Under the pieces are notes generated by a model. The model did no database searches. It saw only the letters and a program-made list of their open reading frames with translations, and was not told the origin of the DNA. The position numbers and the translations under genes were made by a program. Positions 310-32,978 of a stretch of 64,000 nucleotides of DNA are shown one piece after another (within the stretch, counting starts at the first letter, position 1; the number at the start of each line of letters is the position of its first letter). The stretch covers positions 192,001 through 256,000 of the forward strand of contig CM000432.1 in assembly GCA_000165345.1 (NCBI GenBank). The letters run 5' to 3'.

Positions 310-600
310 AAAAAAATTATTATTAAATAAAACTTGAGAACTGAGACACTACAATTCAAAAAATAAGAGTTCAAAGTTTTCAATTTTTGGTTTTAAATAT
401 ACATTTTTTCAATTTTTTAAAAAAGCTATCATAGCCTTTGAAATTCTACTAATTTTTATTTCTATTTGATCAATTTCAATATTTGTGAGCTAATTACTAT
501 TTACATGCATTTTCAAGCACATTAGGTTTTTTCTCTTAAAATTGCACATACCGGCATCGAGCACACATTACATGTAAATTTTCTGTTAGATAGCAAATAC

Positions 601-628
601 TAATTGCATGCATATTCATGTGGACAAA
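601..628. promoter_or_regulatory. TGCATGCATATTCATGTGGACAAA block, with a near-identical copy at 60561-60587
   Basis: The core GCATGCAT[AT]TTCATGTGGAC[AG]AA is identical at two distant intergenic sites. TGTGGAC cores also occur at 5238-5246 (reverse strand) and 19276-19284. Confidence 0.35.
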
Positions 629-795: not shown

Positions 796-2079
796 TTATT
801 TTTCCAAGTGCTCGACTTCAAATTGAATTCCTAAATCTTGGCATTGTTTGATAGCTGAGACTCCAAAAAGAGTAGAGGGTGTTGAAAATCCAGCAGTTTG
901 TGGGAGATTATCATAATCAAAAATGATCGAGAAAGAGCAAGCAAGTGCAGTAACTGCAGAAATACTATAAGTCTCAAGATCTCGTGCCTGAACAACACAT
1001 TTGTAGCTCTTTCCTTGCATTGTAGTTCCAACAAAGGTTGAATTAATAACAGTATCCTTAGCCTTTGAAACATCTGGTCCTGTTCCAATCAAATATGGTG
1101 CTCCACAATGAACCATCTTTGAGATGATATATCTTTCAGATAAGAATCTTCCAATCTTATCCTTAAAGCAACCAGTAAGAGCAGATAAATAAGAATTATT
1201 GATAGATCTTGAGGAAAAAACAAAATCCATACCATATGGATAACCCATTTCTTCATTTGCAAAATGTACAAACATTGAATAAGGACCGGAAAGCATATTT
1301 GGTGAAGTCCATGATTGAAGACTAGAGTTGTAAATTGGCTTACAAGCAACTCTATTTTTTTCAGTAACTTCTGCAATGTTACTAAGACATAAAGTTCCAT
1401 TACACATTCCATAAGGATCATTTTGTTTTATTTCATTCCTCATTGGGCCGTTTATTGTCAATAAAACACTCTTCACTGTTCCATAACTTGCTGATTGGTT
1501 ATATCCATCATGCTGAGAATAGTGTATGACTTCTTGACATGGGAGACCACTTGTTTGTGCCGCAAAGTTTTGAAGATGCAATAATCCTAAATCAACAATA
1601 GTTGAGACAAATCCACAACTTGTGGCAAATTTCAAACCCTTGGATGCAATTGAAGCTCCATATAATTTTTGCATTTTTTTTGCCCATGCATACTCACCGG
1701 ACAAATCTATATAATGAGTGTAATGCTCACAGCATAGGCTCACAATAATCTCACCGCATTCAGTATATGGCCCAGAAACATTGATACAAACTTTTGAATT
1801 TGCAATGCATTTTCCAATTTCCTCATTATTATTACATACAAACATTGGGACAGAGGAAATCATTTCTTCACCTTTAGAAGTACCTGTTTCTTTGTCTAAA
1901 GTATCAATAAGGCACTTTCTAAGGGCTTCCATTTTATCTACACTTCTTCCTCCAAAGCAGTAATTTAAGTTTGTTGTTCCTGGTTTATATGTTCTTACAA
2001 GTAAATCACATATTAAATTCCCTGTGAAGCCAGTGGATCCCCAAATAAATAAATCATATTGTTTTTGTGGTCCGGACAT
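796..2079 (-). CDS. saccharopine dehydrogenase-like (SCCPDH family) NAD(P)-binding oxidoreductase
   Basis: 427-aa ORF starting at an ATG. The N-terminus YDLFIWGSTGFTGNLICDLLV is a Rossmann GxxGxxG motif typical of saccharopine dehydrogenase-like proteins, and the long C-terminal domain fits that family. Confidence 0.65.
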   Translation of the reverse strand: MSGPQKQYDLFIWGSTGFTGNLICDLLVRTYKPGTTNLNYCFGGRSVDKMEALRKCLIDTLDKETGTSKGEEMISSVPMFVCNNNEEIGKCIANSKVCINVSGPYTECGEIIVSLCCEHYTHYIDLSGEYAWAKKMQKLYGASIASKGLKFATSCGFVSTIVDLGLLHLQNFAAQTSGLPCQEVIHYSQHDGYNQSASYGTVKSVLLTINGPMRNEIKQNDPYGMCNGTLCLSNIAEVTEKNRVACKPIYNSSLQSWTSPNMLSGPYSMFVHFANEEMGYPYGMDFVFSSRSINNSYLSALTGCFKDKIGRFLSERYIISKMVHCGAPYLIGTGPDVSKAKDTVINSTFVGTTMQGKSYKCVVQARDLETYSISAVTALACSFSIIFDYDNLPQTAGFSTPSTLFGVSAIKQCQDLGIQFEVEHLEK

Positions 2080-3768: not shown

Positions 3769-4770
3769 TTAATTTCTTTTAAAAGATTTTGCATTACTCA
3801 TGTTTCCAAATAAGTTCTTTTTATTGCTACGATTACTGATTTTATTAGATCTGTCATCTTCACTATCTGAATCAGTATCGCTATTACTTTCACTACTACT
3901 TTCTGATTCACTATCAGATTCGTCTTCATCTACATTAAGGATATCACCTTCGTCATCTTCTTCAAGTTCGTCATCTTCATCAACAGCTTCACCAGTAAAC
4001 CAATATAGAGAGTATGGAATCAATTTATCCCTAATAAAGATTCCCATTTCATAATCAGTTTCTACAGTGGATTCAAGTTCCATAATATCGAAACGATCCA
4101 TTTTTGCAAGTTCTTCGTCAGAAGGAACATTTAAAGATTTAAAGAAATTAAAGAAGCTTTCTCTATGGACAGTTTCTGTCACAATACGAACTTCTTTGGA
4201 TTGTTTATGTCTTTGCCTTCTGACAACAACCTCTTGAGTAGGGTCTCTTCCTTGCTTCCATTCAATTTTGCTTACAACAGTATTGCTTAATAATGGCTCA
4301 TCGTCTTCTAAGAAAACCATAACATATTCTTTTTTAATATTTGTGCCTTCAAAGAAGGGATTTGGAGCAAAGTTGAAATTAAGAATAAAACCAGATTGTT
4401 GCTCTGAAGTCCATTCCGAGGTAATATTCTTAAGATATGAAAGAATAGGAATGTCATACTCTTCAATGGCTGACCCTAGCATTCTGCTGTTCCTCATTGC
4501 AGTAATCCAAAATTGAGGTAGTCCAGGAGTTCCAGATTCTTCAACAGTGCCTGATTCCAAAATTTGATCTCTTTTACTATAAATTTCGTTATACTGAGCT
4601 TCAAATTTTGAACGGAGTTTTCGCATTTCTGCCAAGTATTCCTTTTCTATCAAGTTAAATTCAATCTGCAAATCTTTAAGTTTTTTGAGAGATTGCCTGC
4701 TCTCATCAGATAAATGTTGTTCGAACTCGTCGATTTCTTCTATCTTGTCTCCAGAAGTGTTAGTATTCAT
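3769..4770 (-). CDS. nucleosome assembly protein (NAP1 family) with an acidic Ser/Asp-rich C-terminal tail
   Basis: 333 aa. NAP motifs are present (FWITAMRNSRMLGSAIEEYDIPILSYLKNI, FNFAPNPFFEGTNIKKEYV), followed by the long acidic tail typical of NAP. Confidence 0.8.
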   Translation of the reverse strand: MNTNTSGDKIEEIDEFEQHLSDESRQSLKKLKDLQIEFNLIEKEYLAEMRKLRSKFEAQYNEIYSKRDQILESGTVEESGTPGLPQFWITAMRNSRMLGSAIEEYDIPILSYLKNITSEWTSEQQSGFILNFNFAPNPFFEGTNIKKEYVMVFLEDDEPLLSNTVVSKIEWKQGRDPTQEVVVRRQRHKQSKEVRIVTETVHRESFFNFFKSLNVPSDEELAKMDRFDIMELESTVETDYEMGIFIRDKLIPYSLYWFTGEAVDEDDELEEDDEGDILNVDEDESDSESESSSESNSDTDSDSEDDRSNKISNRSNKKNLFGNMSNAKSFKRN

Positions 4771-5483
4771 CTTAACTTTTTTATAGGCACTAGAAATTTG
4801 AATTAAATGAAGCTATTCTTGACGACAGAATAACGATTTTGTAAATTTTGACATTAATTTATAGCTCTGTTTTCATGGCGGGAAAATCCATTAGGTTTAA
4901 CTTAACTAACATTTTATAAGCCATTATCATTCAGGTAGTTTATAGCTTTATGACTAGACAATAAATTATTATGATTTTTTTAATGTTAGAAAATAAGTGT
5001 TGAATTAAACTACAAAAGTAATGAATTTTAGTGCTTTTGAACTTAAAATACATCTGTTGGTCTTCTTAAGAATTGATTTTAATTATAAATTTTTTTTAAA
5101 GTATTGCTACATTCAAAATTAATAATTATTGAATCTTTTTTTTCATAAAATGTTTACTTACGTGTCATGTGTTTGTTGTTTTTTTAATTAATAAGTAAAT
5201 TGCATGTAACACCGGTATAGTAATGTTTCTTAATTTTGTCCACATGCAAATATTTATGAATGAATAAAAAAATATAAAGGTACACACATAGTCAAAGTAT
5301 GAACTAAAAAAAAAAATCAATTAATTAAATAATTTAAAAATTTGTTCAAACAAGGAGACTAAGAGAGAATATTAATATACAAAACATAGAGCATTTATTC
5401 AAATTTAAAATAATTGCGTTTTGCAATACAAGATAAATGAAATTAGAATAGAAAATCACAAAAAAGGTGAATAATTAATAAAA

Positions 5484-14723: not shown

Positions 14724-19043
<4,320 letters not shown>

Positions 19044-19145: not shown

Positions 19146-19295
19146 AAATAAATTAATTCCCATTTTAATAAATATTTTATTCCCCACTTATTTATATATA
19201 TAATATAAATTATTTACACGTAATTATTATTTAAATGACGTGGGTTAATACCGCCAAAATATTTTATATTATTTCTTGTGGACTGAAAAAGTATT

Positions 19296-19328
19296 TGCAT
19301 GCATGCAAAAAATTGGTATACCGGTATT
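19296..19328. promoter_or_regulatory. TTGCATGCATGCAAAA plus GGTATACCGGTATT palindromes upstream of TOP2
   Basis: A double GCATGC (AP2-type motif in apicomplexans) and an ACCGGT palindrome lie about 520 bp 5' of TOP2. CGCCAAAA (19250s) and CTTGTGGAC (19276-19284) lie just upstream. Confidence 0.4.
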
Positions 19329-27329: not shown

Positions 27330-28195
27330 ATTTTTCAGATCCAGAAAAATTACCTTAATCAAGTGATTGTAAATACCTTAATATATTTCTCTTAGACTCT
27401 GTAAAACAAGTTTTAAAGATCTTTTATTATTTTATATTTTTAGTTATTTTTTCTAATTCAAACCTTTATACAATTTTTATGCCACAAGAATTCCCGCCAA
27501 AATTTTATTTATTAATTTATTTTAATTTTATACTTAATTACTCCAGGATTTATCTGTAGAAATGTGTGTGAGGCGAATAATATGGTCAGAAAAAGAACAA
27601 GTTCATTTAATAAATTCAATACCTTACAAAAACTTTTAATCTTAATCAAAATAAATTTGTTATATGAATATATATATATATATATATATATGATATAATA
27701 TAAATACGTATGCCCTGTATCTATTTTCTATTATTGCATTTTTATTTTTATAATTTAATTCTAAAAATGGGAAGCCCGCCATTTTCTAATTTATATTGCA
27801 TATTTATTTGTATTTGGAAGCCTATAAAAGAAAGGAAAACTAGATGAAAAGGAGGAATGAGAATTTAATGTAGTAATAAGAAGACAATGTGAAAATAAGA
27901 AAATAGTACAATAATGGGAGGAAATTATGTAAAATAAAAAGTGGGGAAAGAAAATTTAGGCTGTTATCAAAAAAAAAGAAAAATAGTCAAATATTTCCTA
28001 CTCTTATATTAGAGATTAAGGGTAGGAGAAGTTAAAAAAAAATGAAAAACAGAAAATAGGTGAAAGTTAAAAAGAGGAAGAAATGTAATTAGAATTTGGA
28101 TTTGAATATTTAAGAAAAATTTCACGATTTTCTTATATCCGAAAAAAAAGTTGATTAGTAAAGGTATCGCATTATACCGGTAAATAGGCGCGTTG

Positions 28196-30459: not shown

Positions 30460-30487
30460 GCGGCGCCGGCGGGAAAATCCGGTACCC
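30460..30487. promoter_or_regulatory. GC cluster GCGGCGCCGGCGGGAAAATCCGGTACCC in the divergent UAP1 / CstF-50 promoter region
   Basis: An E2F-like GGCGGGAAAA fused to ATCCGGTACCC. The same composite recurs at 34197-34233 and in part at 54194-54219. Confidence 0.45.
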
Positions 30488-30764
30488 ATTAATTTATAGT
30501 AAAATTAAGGATGAAAAAAAATAGAAAGTTAGAATAATAATAGTATTTCCTGATCTTTTCTTATTAAAAACTTTCTAAAATAAATAAATCAACAATCTGA
30601 ACATTTATAGTGATTGAAGAAATATTTTGGGAAAGTGATAAGTTGATCAGAAACACTTAACACATATATAATATATATTTTCAAAGTTTTAAAAAAAAAA
30701 AAAAAAACACTTTTTGATTCATCCATTTTTTTCAAATCCCTTAAATTCATATGATAATAATAAG

Positions 30765-32978
30765 ATGAATAATAATGATAATACAAAAATGATACCAATG
30801 AGTGATAGTATGGAAGATCATCTCAGTGTTATGCCAATCAATACAGATGAATCATCTTCTGGCAATAACATTAATACAAATATTTATGGTGAAAATAAAC
30901 TTAATATTACAAAAACAAATGAGCTTGGCTCTTCAACTATTAAAGAATACCTTGAATTTGAACCACTAAAAATTAGTCTATATGAATTAATTATGAGACA
31001 ATTAATGGATGATGGATTAATTGAAGTAGCACAGTTACTACATATTAAAACAAAAACATCAATACCAATACATATTAATAAAAATTGCCTCTATAATCTT
31101 TATAAGACTGTTACATATCTTCCAATGGATTTAAGACAAGGAAATCATGAAAATCATGAAAATAATGATCTTTTAGAATTAAAAAGTACTAATTACGTTA
31201 AAAGAATTGAATCTGTGTTACCACATCTTGAGAATTTAACAAAACAATGGATACCTATTCGACCAAAATCCAGATTTCTGTATTATTATAAAAAGAAAGG
31301 TAATTATTCAAATGCTATAATGAAATCATATCCTTTAATTAATATTAATGATAAAATTACAAATACAAAACATCATATTTCTGATGATTTATCTAATCAT
31401 CATGTTACTCCTATAACTGAAAATGATCAGAATAATCCAATTATTAATGATGAACATGAAAATCAAAAATCAAAAGAAAAACCTTGCAAAGAATTTTATT
31501 TCCTTGAAAACTTATCAAAAATCAAATTACAAGATTCTTGGAATACTATTCCAAATATTTCTGTCAATTTTAGAGGAAATAGTGTCTTATCTAATCATAG
31601 ACCATACTGTAGAGCTTTAGCTGTAAATCCTAATGGAGGATATATTGCTACAGGAGGAGCTGATGGTATTGTAAAAATTGTTCCTGCACCTTCACAAGGT
31701 ATTAATGGTACTTTTAATTCATCTATTTTTGGAATTGGTACTAATTCTAGTCTATCATCACAACAAAAAACATTTACTGAAAGTAAAGGTATTATTACAT
31801 CCCTAGAGTACCGAATTAGAAAAGATATACTCATTTCTGGAGATACTGATTCTACTTTAATTATATATGATGTTAAAGGTATTTCTGGTGGTAATTCTGG
31901 AGATATGGATGAAATTACACCAAATATTACTAATATTAATAATAACAATCAATCCAGAATTTCAAAAAAACCAATACAAAATATTCGTGAAAGTTCTCCA
32001 ATTAACTGTATACAAATGCATCCTTTAGATGATCACTTTTTTGTTGGTACTCAAGATCCAATCTTAAGATTATACGATATTCATACAAATGACTCATTTA
32101 CATCATCACATCCTATTCATCAACATTGTTCTGCTATTAATGATATTAAAATTTCTCAAGATGGATCAATTGTATGTACCTGTAGTGAAGATGGTACTAT
32201 CAAATTCTGGGATTCTGTTAATTTATCTTGTATTAATACTATTTATGGATCTCATAGTGGATTTCCAGTACATTCTTTATCATTTTCTTTATCTCAAAAA
32301 TATTTAATATCTTCAGGAGGAGATGGTATTGCTAGATTATGGGATCTTAGAATGGGAAGAGAATTAGTCAAGTATTCATCAGGATTAAGAAGTTCTTGTC
32401 ATTCAAAAGTATCGTTTTTGATTGATGAAAGATATACTATTCTTTCTGCAATTGATGATACTGGTTCATCTTATAGTAATATAATGAATAATGTTTCAAA
32501 TTTAATGGATGATCATAACTTAGGATTAGATAAAAATTCGGATTTAAGTAAAGATCATTCAATGTTAATTCAAAATAGGGATGAATTATTAGATCCTTTA
32601 TCTACAAATATTGGATTAAGAGTAAATAATAAATCAAACTTATTTAACTCAAAAATGGTCAATGATATGTTAAAATCAAGAAACTTTAAAATATTGGATC
32701 GTCAAATTAAACAGAATCCTATTGGTGATCTTTTAATATTTAATACTTTATCAGGAAATCTAATTGGGACAGTAGAAGGAATTCATGATGCTCCTATAAT
32801 GAACTTTGAACTTTTATATAATAATAATCTAAATGGTAATATAAATGGAAACAATGTATCAACAAGTAATAATAATCAAAATAATCTTCCATGTTCAATT
32901 TCAGATTGTTCATTAGTAACAGTAAGTGATGATGGGAAATGTAGAATCTTAGACTTGAATTATTCAAGTTTATTATAA
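30765..32978 (+). CDS. CSTF1: cleavage stimulation factor 50 kDa subunit (CstF-50/CSTF1) homologue, WD40
   Basis: The dimerisation-helix motif LYELIMRQLMDDGLIEVAQLL corresponds to QLYKLIISQLLYDGY in CstF-50. WD40 blades follow, with characteristic segments HRPYCRALAVNPNGGYIATGGADGIVKI, FVGTQDPILRLYDIHT, CTCSEDGTIKFWD and LISSGGDGIARLWDLRMGRELVKY. The track ORF starts at a TTG at 30714. The first ATG is at 30765. Confidence 0.8.
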   Translation: MNNNDNTKMIPMSDSMEDHLSVMPINTDESSSGNNINTNIYGENKLNITKTNELGSSTIKEYLEFEPLKISLYELIMRQLMDDGLIEVAQLLHIKTKTSIPIHINKNCLYNLYKTVTYLPMDLRQGNHENHENNDLLELKSTNYVKRIESVLPHLENLTKQWIPIRPKSRFLYYYKKKGNYSNAIMKSYPLININDKITNTKHHISDDLSNHHVTPITENDQNNPIINDEHENQKSKEKPCKEFYFLENLSKIKLQDSWNTIPNISVNFRGNSVLSNHRPYCRALAVNPNGGYIATGGADGIVKIVPAPSQGINGTFNSSIFGIGTNSSLSSQQKTFTESKGIITSLEYRIRKDILISGDTDSTLIIYDVKGISGGNSGDMDEITPNITNINNNNQSRISKKPIQNIRESSPINCIQMHPLDDHFFVGTQDPILRLYDIHTNDSFTSSHPIHQHCSAINDIKISQDGSIVCTCSEDGTIKFWDSVNLSCINTIYGSHSGFPVHSLSFSLSQKYLISSGGDGIARLWDLRMGRELVKYSSGLRSSCHSKVSFLIDERYTILSAIDDTGSSYSNIMNNVSNLMDDHNLGLDKNSDLSKDHSMLIQNRDELLDPLSTNIGLRVNNKSNLFNSKMVNDMLKSRNFKILDRQIKQNPIGDLLIFNTLSGNLIGTVEGIHDAPIMNFELLYNNNLNGNINGNNVSTSNNNQNNLPCSISDCSLVTVSDDGKCRILDLNYSSLL

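Follow-up and report, generated by a model that had tools for sequence, protein, structure and literature searches.

Why should a block of 22 nucleotides (nt) recur almost unchanged at two intergenic sites 59 kb apart? The question is raised by a 64,000-nt stretch of Cryptosporidium parvum chromosome 4 (GenBank assembly GCA_000165345.1, contig CM000432.1, positions 192,001–256,000 of the forward strand; hereafter the window), which exact protein look-ups show to run from cgd4_690 to cgd4_920. We are fairly confident that the block is a conserved composite module of predicted transcription-factor-binding sites, that is, a compact piece of cis-regulatory DNA. Whether it has a role late in the life cycle, in the sexual stages, we regard as an even call.

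The 20-mer GCATGCATWTTCATGTGGAC was found in the window only at 606–625 and 60565–60584, with 0.00 matches expected from 100 shuffles, in line with the first-pass annotation of this DNA, which had singled out two near-identical distant blocks. It had counted 24 identical positions in 27; an ungapped comparison over 27 nt gives 22 matches at best, and the real core is TGCATGCAT[A/T]TTCATGTGGAC, identical at 21 of 22 positions, with similarity ending at both edges and identity collapsing outside 605–625. The 9-mer CATGTGGAC has three exact matches (617+, 5238− and 60576+) against 0.06 expected, while TGTGGAC by itself is not over-represented (4 versus 2.15 expected). All four copies of TGTGGAC (619, 5238−, 19277 and 60578) nevertheless fall in non-coding DNA, which makes up ~27% of the window; the instance that the first-pass annotation placed at 19276–19284, CTTGTGGAC, lies at 19275–19283. 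The enrichment signal resides in the longer word, the strict restriction to non-coding DNA and the pairing with TGCATGCA, not in TGTGGAC alone.

The window is AT-rich (G+C ~28%) and densely packed with long, intron-poor open reading frames (ORFs) that encode eukaryotic proteins, including topoisomerase II, NAP, Utp13 and histidine acid phosphatases. Copy 1 (core 605–625) is located inside the 486-nt tail-to-tail spacer of two convergent genes, PNO (cgd4_690, pyruvate:NADP oxidoreductase, forward strand, stop at 309) and cgd4_700 (ORF 796–2079, reverse strand, stop at 796), 296 nt beyond the stop of the former and 170 nt beyond that of the latter. Copy 2 (core 60564–60584) is in a 1.55-kb spacer, ~540 nt upstream of the ATG of cgd4_910 (58370–60022, reverse strand, ATG at 60022) and ~1 kb past the stop of cgd4_920 (61576–63159, reverse strand), the tandem histidine-phosphatase paralog of cgd4_910. 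A 641-amino-acid (aa) model of cgd4_910 was considered as bringing the ATG nearer to copy 2 and was rejected, as the models differ only at the C terminus and the ATG remains at 60022. The 550-aa ORF at 58370–60022 is the older cgd4_910 model, without the 3′ intron. C. canis and C. ryanae have a single histidine-phosphatase copy at the cgd4_910/cgd4_920 locus.

The left half of the block is a known site. At both copies TGCATGCA is an exact palindromic 8-mer of the AP2_1 type (BGCATGCAH), the documented ApiAP2 box (PMC3734150, PMC4117751). It was found nine times at seven loci in the window against 0.31 expected, and all nine matches lie outside the listed coding intervals, an enrichment in spacers like that described for C. 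parvum non-coding DNA. The box occupies 605–612 at copy 1, where TTGCATGC is invariant in five species; at copy 2, TGCATGCATGCA (60560–60571) comprises two overlapping AP2_1 matches, 60560–60567 and 60564–60571. A second AP2-like box at copy 2, TGCATGCGCA (60537–60546; TGCRCATGCA in gene orientation), is kept in C. parvum, C. meleagridis, the chipmunk genotype and C. canis. In protein-binding microarrays on isolated domains, TGCATGCA is bound in vitro by cgd1_3520, by the female-specific cgd2_3490 and AP2-F and by other C. parvum AP2 domains (PMC3734150, PMC4117751, PMC12246861), and in Plasmodium AP2_1 is bound by PF14_0633/AP2-Sp. However, the conserved unit runs 9–13 nt further, into a box that is not palindromic, and AP2_1 alone is therefore insufficient to account for the block.

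That right-hand box has the consensus (C)ATGTGGAY(A), or GTCCACAT on the other strand, and it matches none of the C. parvum AP2 specificities compared from the published record considered here (TGCAT, CACACA/GTGTGT, G-box, GCGTGCA and AAAA). At copy 1 it reads TCATGTGGACAAA (616–628, +), whose minus strand, TTGTCCACATG, is exactly Motif5 of Li et al. 2021 (PMC7840661); at copy 2 it reads TCATGTGGACGAA (60575–60587, +), with GGACAAA or GGACAGA in the other four species. Li et al. applied MEME to the 100-nt stretches preceding 396 long non-coding RNAs (lncRNAs) and gave five motifs in Supplementary Table S3, among them Motif5, TTGTCCACATK, the reverse complement of CATGTGGACAA. Copy 1 and a further conserved copy at 5234–5250 (site 3, below) match the 11-nt consensus exactly on the opposite strand; copy 2, TCGTCCACATG, has one mismatch, a TCGTCCACAT variant that it has in common with the Cp_lnc_375 instance. 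The text of that study discusses only Motif 1 (E2F) and Motif 2 (AP2), and in the passages considered no factor, conservation, pairing or stage association is described for Motif5.

The same box may have been met once before. Oberstaller 2013 (PMC3734150) reported a motif left without a name, A[T/A]G[T/A]GGA.A, in the promoters of the class II oocyst-wall (COWP) genes, which peak at 72 h, and found it accompanied by AP2_1-like and E2F-like motifs. From the consensus string we infer that this is the box of the window: it is fitted by ATGTGGACA (copy 1 and site 3) and ATGTGGATA (sites 5 and 6, below), copy 2 fits it in four other species, and AP2_1 and E2F motifs are nearby here too. The published motif was derived from only five genes, and it was called 'not similar to any of the 11 families'. 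The right-hand box is neither among the 25 motifs of Oberstaller 2013 nor in the table of a 2025 review, which recognizes only six promoter motif families in Cryptosporidium and includes neither ATGTGGAY nor TACCGG. A full-text literature search for TGTGGA in Cryptosporidium returned primer matches only, and one by cgd4 gene identifiers returned no matches. The sequence of the right-hand box is thus already recorded in the Li 2021 supplementary table and probably also as the Oberstaller 2013 motif; what is new with respect to the literature compared, in the parts considered, is how deeply the box is conserved, that it keeps company with TGCATGCA, TACCGG and CACGTAA, and that it is linked to lncRNAs specific to 48 h.

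The pairing of the two halves is not confined to the two main copies. A TGTGGAY copy lies no more than 45 nt from TGCATGCA at four of its seven loci (p ≤ 5e-5; when TGTGGAY copies were placed at random in non-coding DNA, no more than 5 of 100,000 trials reached four of seven). Upstream of lncRNAs, Motif5 often accompanies the ApiAP2 Motif2 of the same study: it lies within 100 nt upstream of 18 listed lncRNAs, 10 of which also have the AP2 motif, at 1 to 73 nt from the box and on either strand (PMC7840661). The first-pass annotation had proposed a bipartite element, an AP2-type site plus a partner at fixed spacing. An AP2-type site with a partner fits the documented AP2_1 box, the recorded Motif5, their co-occurrence and their conservation; a rigid spacing is not general. 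The boxes are 5 nt apart, measured from TGCATGCA to ATGTGGA, at both main copies and 3 nt apart in the C. ubiquitum and C. canis orthologs of copy 1; elsewhere the box overlaps TGCATG at 5238, stands inverted at 12 nt, beyond TGCATGCATGCA, at 19275, and lies at 20 nt at 63595. Relative to the nearest gene, the box is in the same sense at sites 3, 5 and 6 and antisense at copy 2. The variable spacing and orientation point to a flexible module rather than a rigid bipartite site.

Two further words, TACCGG and CACGTAA, travel with the TGCATGCA and TGTGGAY boxes. TACCGG occurs 10 times in the window against 1.74 expected. At copy 1 it occupies 549–554 (+), the invariant columns A251–G255 of a five-species alignment, and ACATGCA is often fixed 4 nt after it (at copy 1 in four species, at site 3 in five); at copy 1 TACCGG-N4-ACATGCA is found in the four other species and ACATGCA is degenerate in C. 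parvum. CACGTAA is present four times against 0.96 expected (5158(−), 19217, 42140 and 63614(−)), each time in a spacer carrying TGCATGCA, which it directly adjoins at 42130 and 63623; it had no match among the published C. parvum motifs compared, as far as these are represented here. Copies 1 and 2 also have E2F-like GGCGCC and CCGCC no further than 30 nt away, GGCGCC adjoining copy 1. The positions of TACCGG include 549, 5212(−), 19319–19326, 28175–28182, 30479(−) and 34222(−); at 19319 and 28175 it forms the palindrome TACCGGTA, and at 30475–30487 and 34218–34230 it lies within the 13-mer AAATCCGGTACCC, each time beside an E2F site (GGCGGGAAAA and TTTCCCGCCAAA). It also overlaps Motif4 instances of Table S3 of Li 2021, which include the CCTATACCGGC type (PMC7840661).

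A scan of all loci for the right-hand box gave three further conserved copies, at 5234–5250(−), 2348–2363(−) and 63595(−), of which the second (TATGTGGATAGATCTA) and the third (ATGTGGAT, 63595–63602(−), seen as AATGTGGATAAA in the scan) were absent from the first-pass annotation. Site 3 is in the divergent promoter of NAP (cgd4_720, 3769–4770, reverse strand) and cgd4_730. There TTTGCATGTGGACAAAA (5234–5250, −) contains overlapping TGCATG and ATGTGGAC boxes, followed by the composite TACCGG-TGTT-ACATGCAA (5200–5217, −), in which CTATACCGG..TT.CATGCA is kept in five species, and by a TGACACGTAA box (5158–5167, −), of which TGACACGTA (5159–5167) is likewise kept in five. Site 6, the 16-mer TATGTGGATAGATCTA, lies ~280 nt upstream of the cgd4_700 ATG. 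Site 5 (63595–63630, −), upstream of cgd4_920, has the order TGCATGCA-AA-CACGTAA-N11-ATGTGGAT, and site 4 (19217–19326), upstream of the topoisomerase II gene, combines CACGTAA at 19217, CTTGTGGAC at 19275–19283, TGCATGCATGCA at 19296–19307 and TACCGGTA at 19319–19326. Elsewhere in the window, positions 16001–18000, within the ORF 14724–19043 (1439 aa), have an extreme strand composition (G+C 0.35, GC skew +0.74, AT skew +0.48), which suggests a purine-rich low-complexity coding repeat.

Conservation was assessed at the orthologous loci of C. meleagridis, Cryptosporidium sp. chipmunk genotype I, C. ubiquitum, C. canis, C. ryanae and C. muris. In the first four, copy 1, copy 2, site 3 and site 6 each stand out as conserved islands at the orthologous position, and orthologous sites in four to six other species retain both the AP2 site and its partner box. 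In the PNO/cgd4_700 spacer, where most columns are poorly conserved across the five species aligned, TACCGG is invariant and copy 1 is kept in four of the five as ATTGCATG..CATT[C/A]ATGTGGA[C/T]; the exception is chipmunk genotype I (ATGTGTAC), which has ATGTGTA where C. meleagridis, C. ubiquitum and C. canis have ATGTGGA. At copy 2, GTCCACATGAAA[A/G]TGCAT is identical in five species. So is the 16-mer of site 6, the sole informative conserved block of its spacer, whose counterparts are GTTTATGTGGAA in C. muris and AAATGTGGAT in C. ryanae. The composite at site 5 is wholly kept in chipmunk genotype I, while C. ubiquitum keeps TGCATGCAAACACGTAA and has lost the ATGTGGA box. When exact C. parvum 8-mers surviving in all four relatives were collected from four spacers, five blocks remained beyond A/T runs and AT-only words: CTATACCGG, TGACACGTA, TTGGCGCCAA, TATGTGGATAGATCTA and GCATGCAA, of which TTGGCGCCAA is an E2F site. 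The orphan box therefore shares the footprint status of E2F and AP2, the best-known promoter motifs of Cryptosporidium.

In the more distant species the boxes persist in other arrangements. The NAP promoter (site 3) of C. muris, the most distant, reads TACCGGTAC-TGCATGC-GACTTTA-ATGTGGAC, so that TACCGG, TGCATGC and ATGTGGAC are all kept together in a new order, and at the cgd4_910 promoter (copy 2) of C. ryanae a TTCCACAA box comes after TGCATGCATGCA. Cooperating transcription-factor sites, as these are predicted to be, typically remain grouped even as their arrangement shifts. The same comparison bears on another account of the block, that it is what remains of a dispersed repeat or mobile element, or else a coincidence in AT-rich DNA. 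Two nearly identical 22-mers 59 kb apart are what such an origin could leave behind, but none of 100 shuffles yielded a single match, all copies are intergenic rather than scattered without regard to genes, and wider pairwise alignment found no flanking homology beyond the core edges. Moreover, four other species carry each copy at the corresponding orthologous position, which indicates selection at each site and not recent copying. We consider a repeat or chance origin very improbable.

The first-pass annotation had also offered the signature of a short non-coding RNA, and a gene for such an RNA, or its promoter, might explain why these spacers are unusually informative and why that of copy 2, at 1.55 kb, is long for C. 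parvum. Yet Rfam gave no family at gathering score and none at E ≤ 1 near either copy, a tRNA scan found no tRNAs, folding z-scores on both strands (−0.2 to −1.25) were no better than those of shuffles, and conservation at copy 1 fades within ~25 nt with no compensatory pattern; we give this explanation hardly any credence. Elsewhere in the window, Rfam reported a weak match to Dictyostelium Class I RNA at 31271–31327(−), inside the ORF 30714–32978 (28.6 bits, E = 0.31, where the gathering score is 41.5), which is probably due to chance. Between copy 2 and the cgd4_910 ATG, two more conserved blocks were seen, GGATAAATAATTAATATGG (60482–60500(−)), present in four species, and AGAGGGAAAAATCTGAAATTTA (~60440–60470(−)); these could be the transcription start region, the 5′ untranslated region (UTR) or another site.

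The position of copy 1, exactly between two convergent genes, would also suit an architectural or boundary element, such as an insulator, a roadblock or terminator between convergent genes, a nucleosome-positioning site or a replication-related site. Symmetry speaks for it as well: the inverted repeat TGT-GG-ACA that makes up the TGTGGACA core suggests that a dimer binds, and in chipmunk genotype I and C. ubiquitum a second, inverted ATGTGGAY around TACCGG flanks copy 1. The other four conserved copies, however, are in ordinary 5′ spacers, and in the data of Li 2021 considered the motif is over-represented immediately before transcript starts that share a stage profile, so that we judge a boundary function unlikely. 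The inverted box (ATGTGGAYA) lies beyond TACCGG in the copy-1 spacers of both species (L004:7575(+) in chipmunk genotype I, L005:7615(+) in C. ubiquitum), and with TACCGG and copy 1 it makes a roughly symmetrical module, of which the C. parvum arm has decayed to ATGTGCTT (about 520–535).

The transcripts next to the motif offer a view of when it might be used. Re-reading of the Li 2021 tables, as far as they are represented here, showed that 7 of the 11 Motif5 lncRNAs with an exact GTCCACA core belong to the 44-member set enriched at 48 h (sexual stage) among the 396, against ~1.2 expected (hypergeometric p = 3e-5). Of the ~25 genes in the window, RNA-sequencing cluster 5 of that study, 'specifically turned on at 48 h', contains just one, cgd4_910, which has copy 2 upstream of it; CPATCC_0018050 was equated with cgd4_910 because Cp_lnc_179 has its start (58040−) within the final exon of the 641-aa model of that gene. 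By reverse-transcription PCR (RT-PCR), cgd4_910 rises roughly 100-fold or more at 48 h. PNO goes up 10–100-fold at 48–72 h, cgd4_700 climbs steadily up to 72 h and cgd4_730 is classed as specific to 72 h; these profiles are consistent with a late-stage role and do not discriminate, and they were given little weight because neighboring genes that lack the box often rise late too.

Two lncRNAs of Li 2021 were found in the window, Cp_lnc_169 (34410+) and Cp_lnc_179 (58040−), and neither starts at a block; in this the window copies differ from the published Motif5 instances, since none of the lncRNAs listed in the tables considered starts beside them. Cp_lnc_179, a feature of the region 57998–58040(−) and 54698–57826, is on the same strand as cgd4_910, antisense to Utp13 and likewise specific to 48 h; instead of being a lncRNA in its own right, it may be the cgd4_910 mRNA read through at its 3′ end. 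About 180 nt upstream of the Cp_lnc_169 start are TTTCCCGCCAAA (E2F) and ATCCGGTACCC.

Might the block act instead in RNA, as a UTR motif read by an RNA-binding protein, for instance in translational repression or stability in gamonts? UGCAUG-type motifs are RNA–protein sites in other eukaryotes. Copy 1 could be in a long 3′ UTR, given its distances of 170 nt from the cgd4_700 stop and 296 nt from that of PNO, and a long 5′ UTR would be possible at copy 2, which is 540 nt from the ATG and is followed by the conserved GGATAAATAATTAATATGG. Against this, AATAAA signals are read in the sequence near both stop codons flanking copy 1, and the box occurs in both orientations with respect to the nearest gene. 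In the Li 2021 data considered, it also stands upstream of mapped lncRNA starts on either strand, and TGCATGCA is a proven DNA site. An RNA-level element thus seems quite improbable to us.

We therefore favor a DNA module of transcription-factor sites, which would work as follows. An AP2 protein would sit on TGCATGCA, the established AP2_1 site, and a second, separate sequence-specific factor would bind (C)ATGTGGAY(A) side by side with it, often with TACCGG and CACGTAA binders nearby. The factors would cooperate through proximity, leaving the order, spacing and orientation of the boxes free to vary, and the module would activate transcription by RNA polymerase II late in the life cycle (48–72 h, sexual stages). 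Its targets would be mRNAs such as that of cgd4_910 together with antisense or intergenic lncRNAs. Copy 1 most likely would drive an unannotated antisense transcript or act on its neighbors from downstream; it is a candidate antisense or bidirectional promoter because it lies between convergent 3′ ends, where C. parvum antisense lncRNAs usually start, beside the E2F-like GGCGCC.

Several observations weigh against this reading. Copy 1 is absent from the orthologous loci of C. muris and C. ryanae, and no lncRNA among those listed in the Li 2021 tables considered is antisense to cgd4_690 or cgd4_700 (CPATCC_0017810 and 0017820). The late rise in RT-PCR (48–72 h) is, as the control shows, common among neighboring genes without the box; the NAP profile is flat; and cgd4_920, the gene with site 5 upstream, has its peak at 6 h among the time points considered, in at least two of four replicates. 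Peaks from the assay for transposase-accessible chromatin with sequencing in sporozoites contain E2F motifs and lack AP2 motifs. Finally, the sequence scans covered 64 kb of C. parvum and ~150 kb of orthologous loci. The tandem paralogs cgd4_920 and cgd4_910 differ in timing, the latter being high at 48 h.

A working analogy for such a partnership is found in Plasmodium, where the non-AP2 factor PFG binds the female-gametocyte element TGTRNNYACA and recruits AP2-FG, and PFG homologs are said to exist broadly in Apicomplexa (bioRxiv 10.1101/2023.04.10.536204). Both cases would join a non-AP2 site to an AP2 factor on sexual-stage promoters, and TGTGGACAAA matches the Plasmodium element at 9 of 10 positions. 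Membership in TGTRNNYACA fails, however: TGTGGACAAA, TGTGGATAGA, TGTGGATAAA and TGTGGACGAA have A or G at position 9, never C across five sites, and the gap between the TGT and ACA half-sites is 2 nt in Cryptosporidium and 4 nt in Plasmodium. The PFG element may serve as a lead or at best an analog. A reading of GGATAA/GGATAG as a site for a GATA factor was also dropped, because that position is most often C in C. parvum and in the consensus of Li et al.

We put forward, tentatively, the possibility that a probably non-AP2 factor on GTCCACAT/ATGTGGAY pairs with the female-stage AP2 proteins that bind TGCATGCA (cgd2_3490 and AP2-F) and with TACCGG and CACGTAA binders, and that the combination defines a sexual-stage regulon. 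If so, this regulon would include antisense lncRNAs specific to 48 h and launched from the 3′ ends of genes, and its regulatory grammar would be older than the split of gastric (C. muris) and intestinal species. In itself the object is of an ordinary kind, a cluster of transcription-factor sites. Gene regulation in Cryptosporidium is poorly understood, though, and here an orphan box footprints as clearly as E2F and AP2 sites do. A short DNA probe such as GTCCACATGAAAATGCATGCA may offer a way to find a regulator of sexual development, the stage that yields transmissible oocysts, and cgd4_910, cgd4_700 and cgd4_730 provide specific promoters on which it may be studied.

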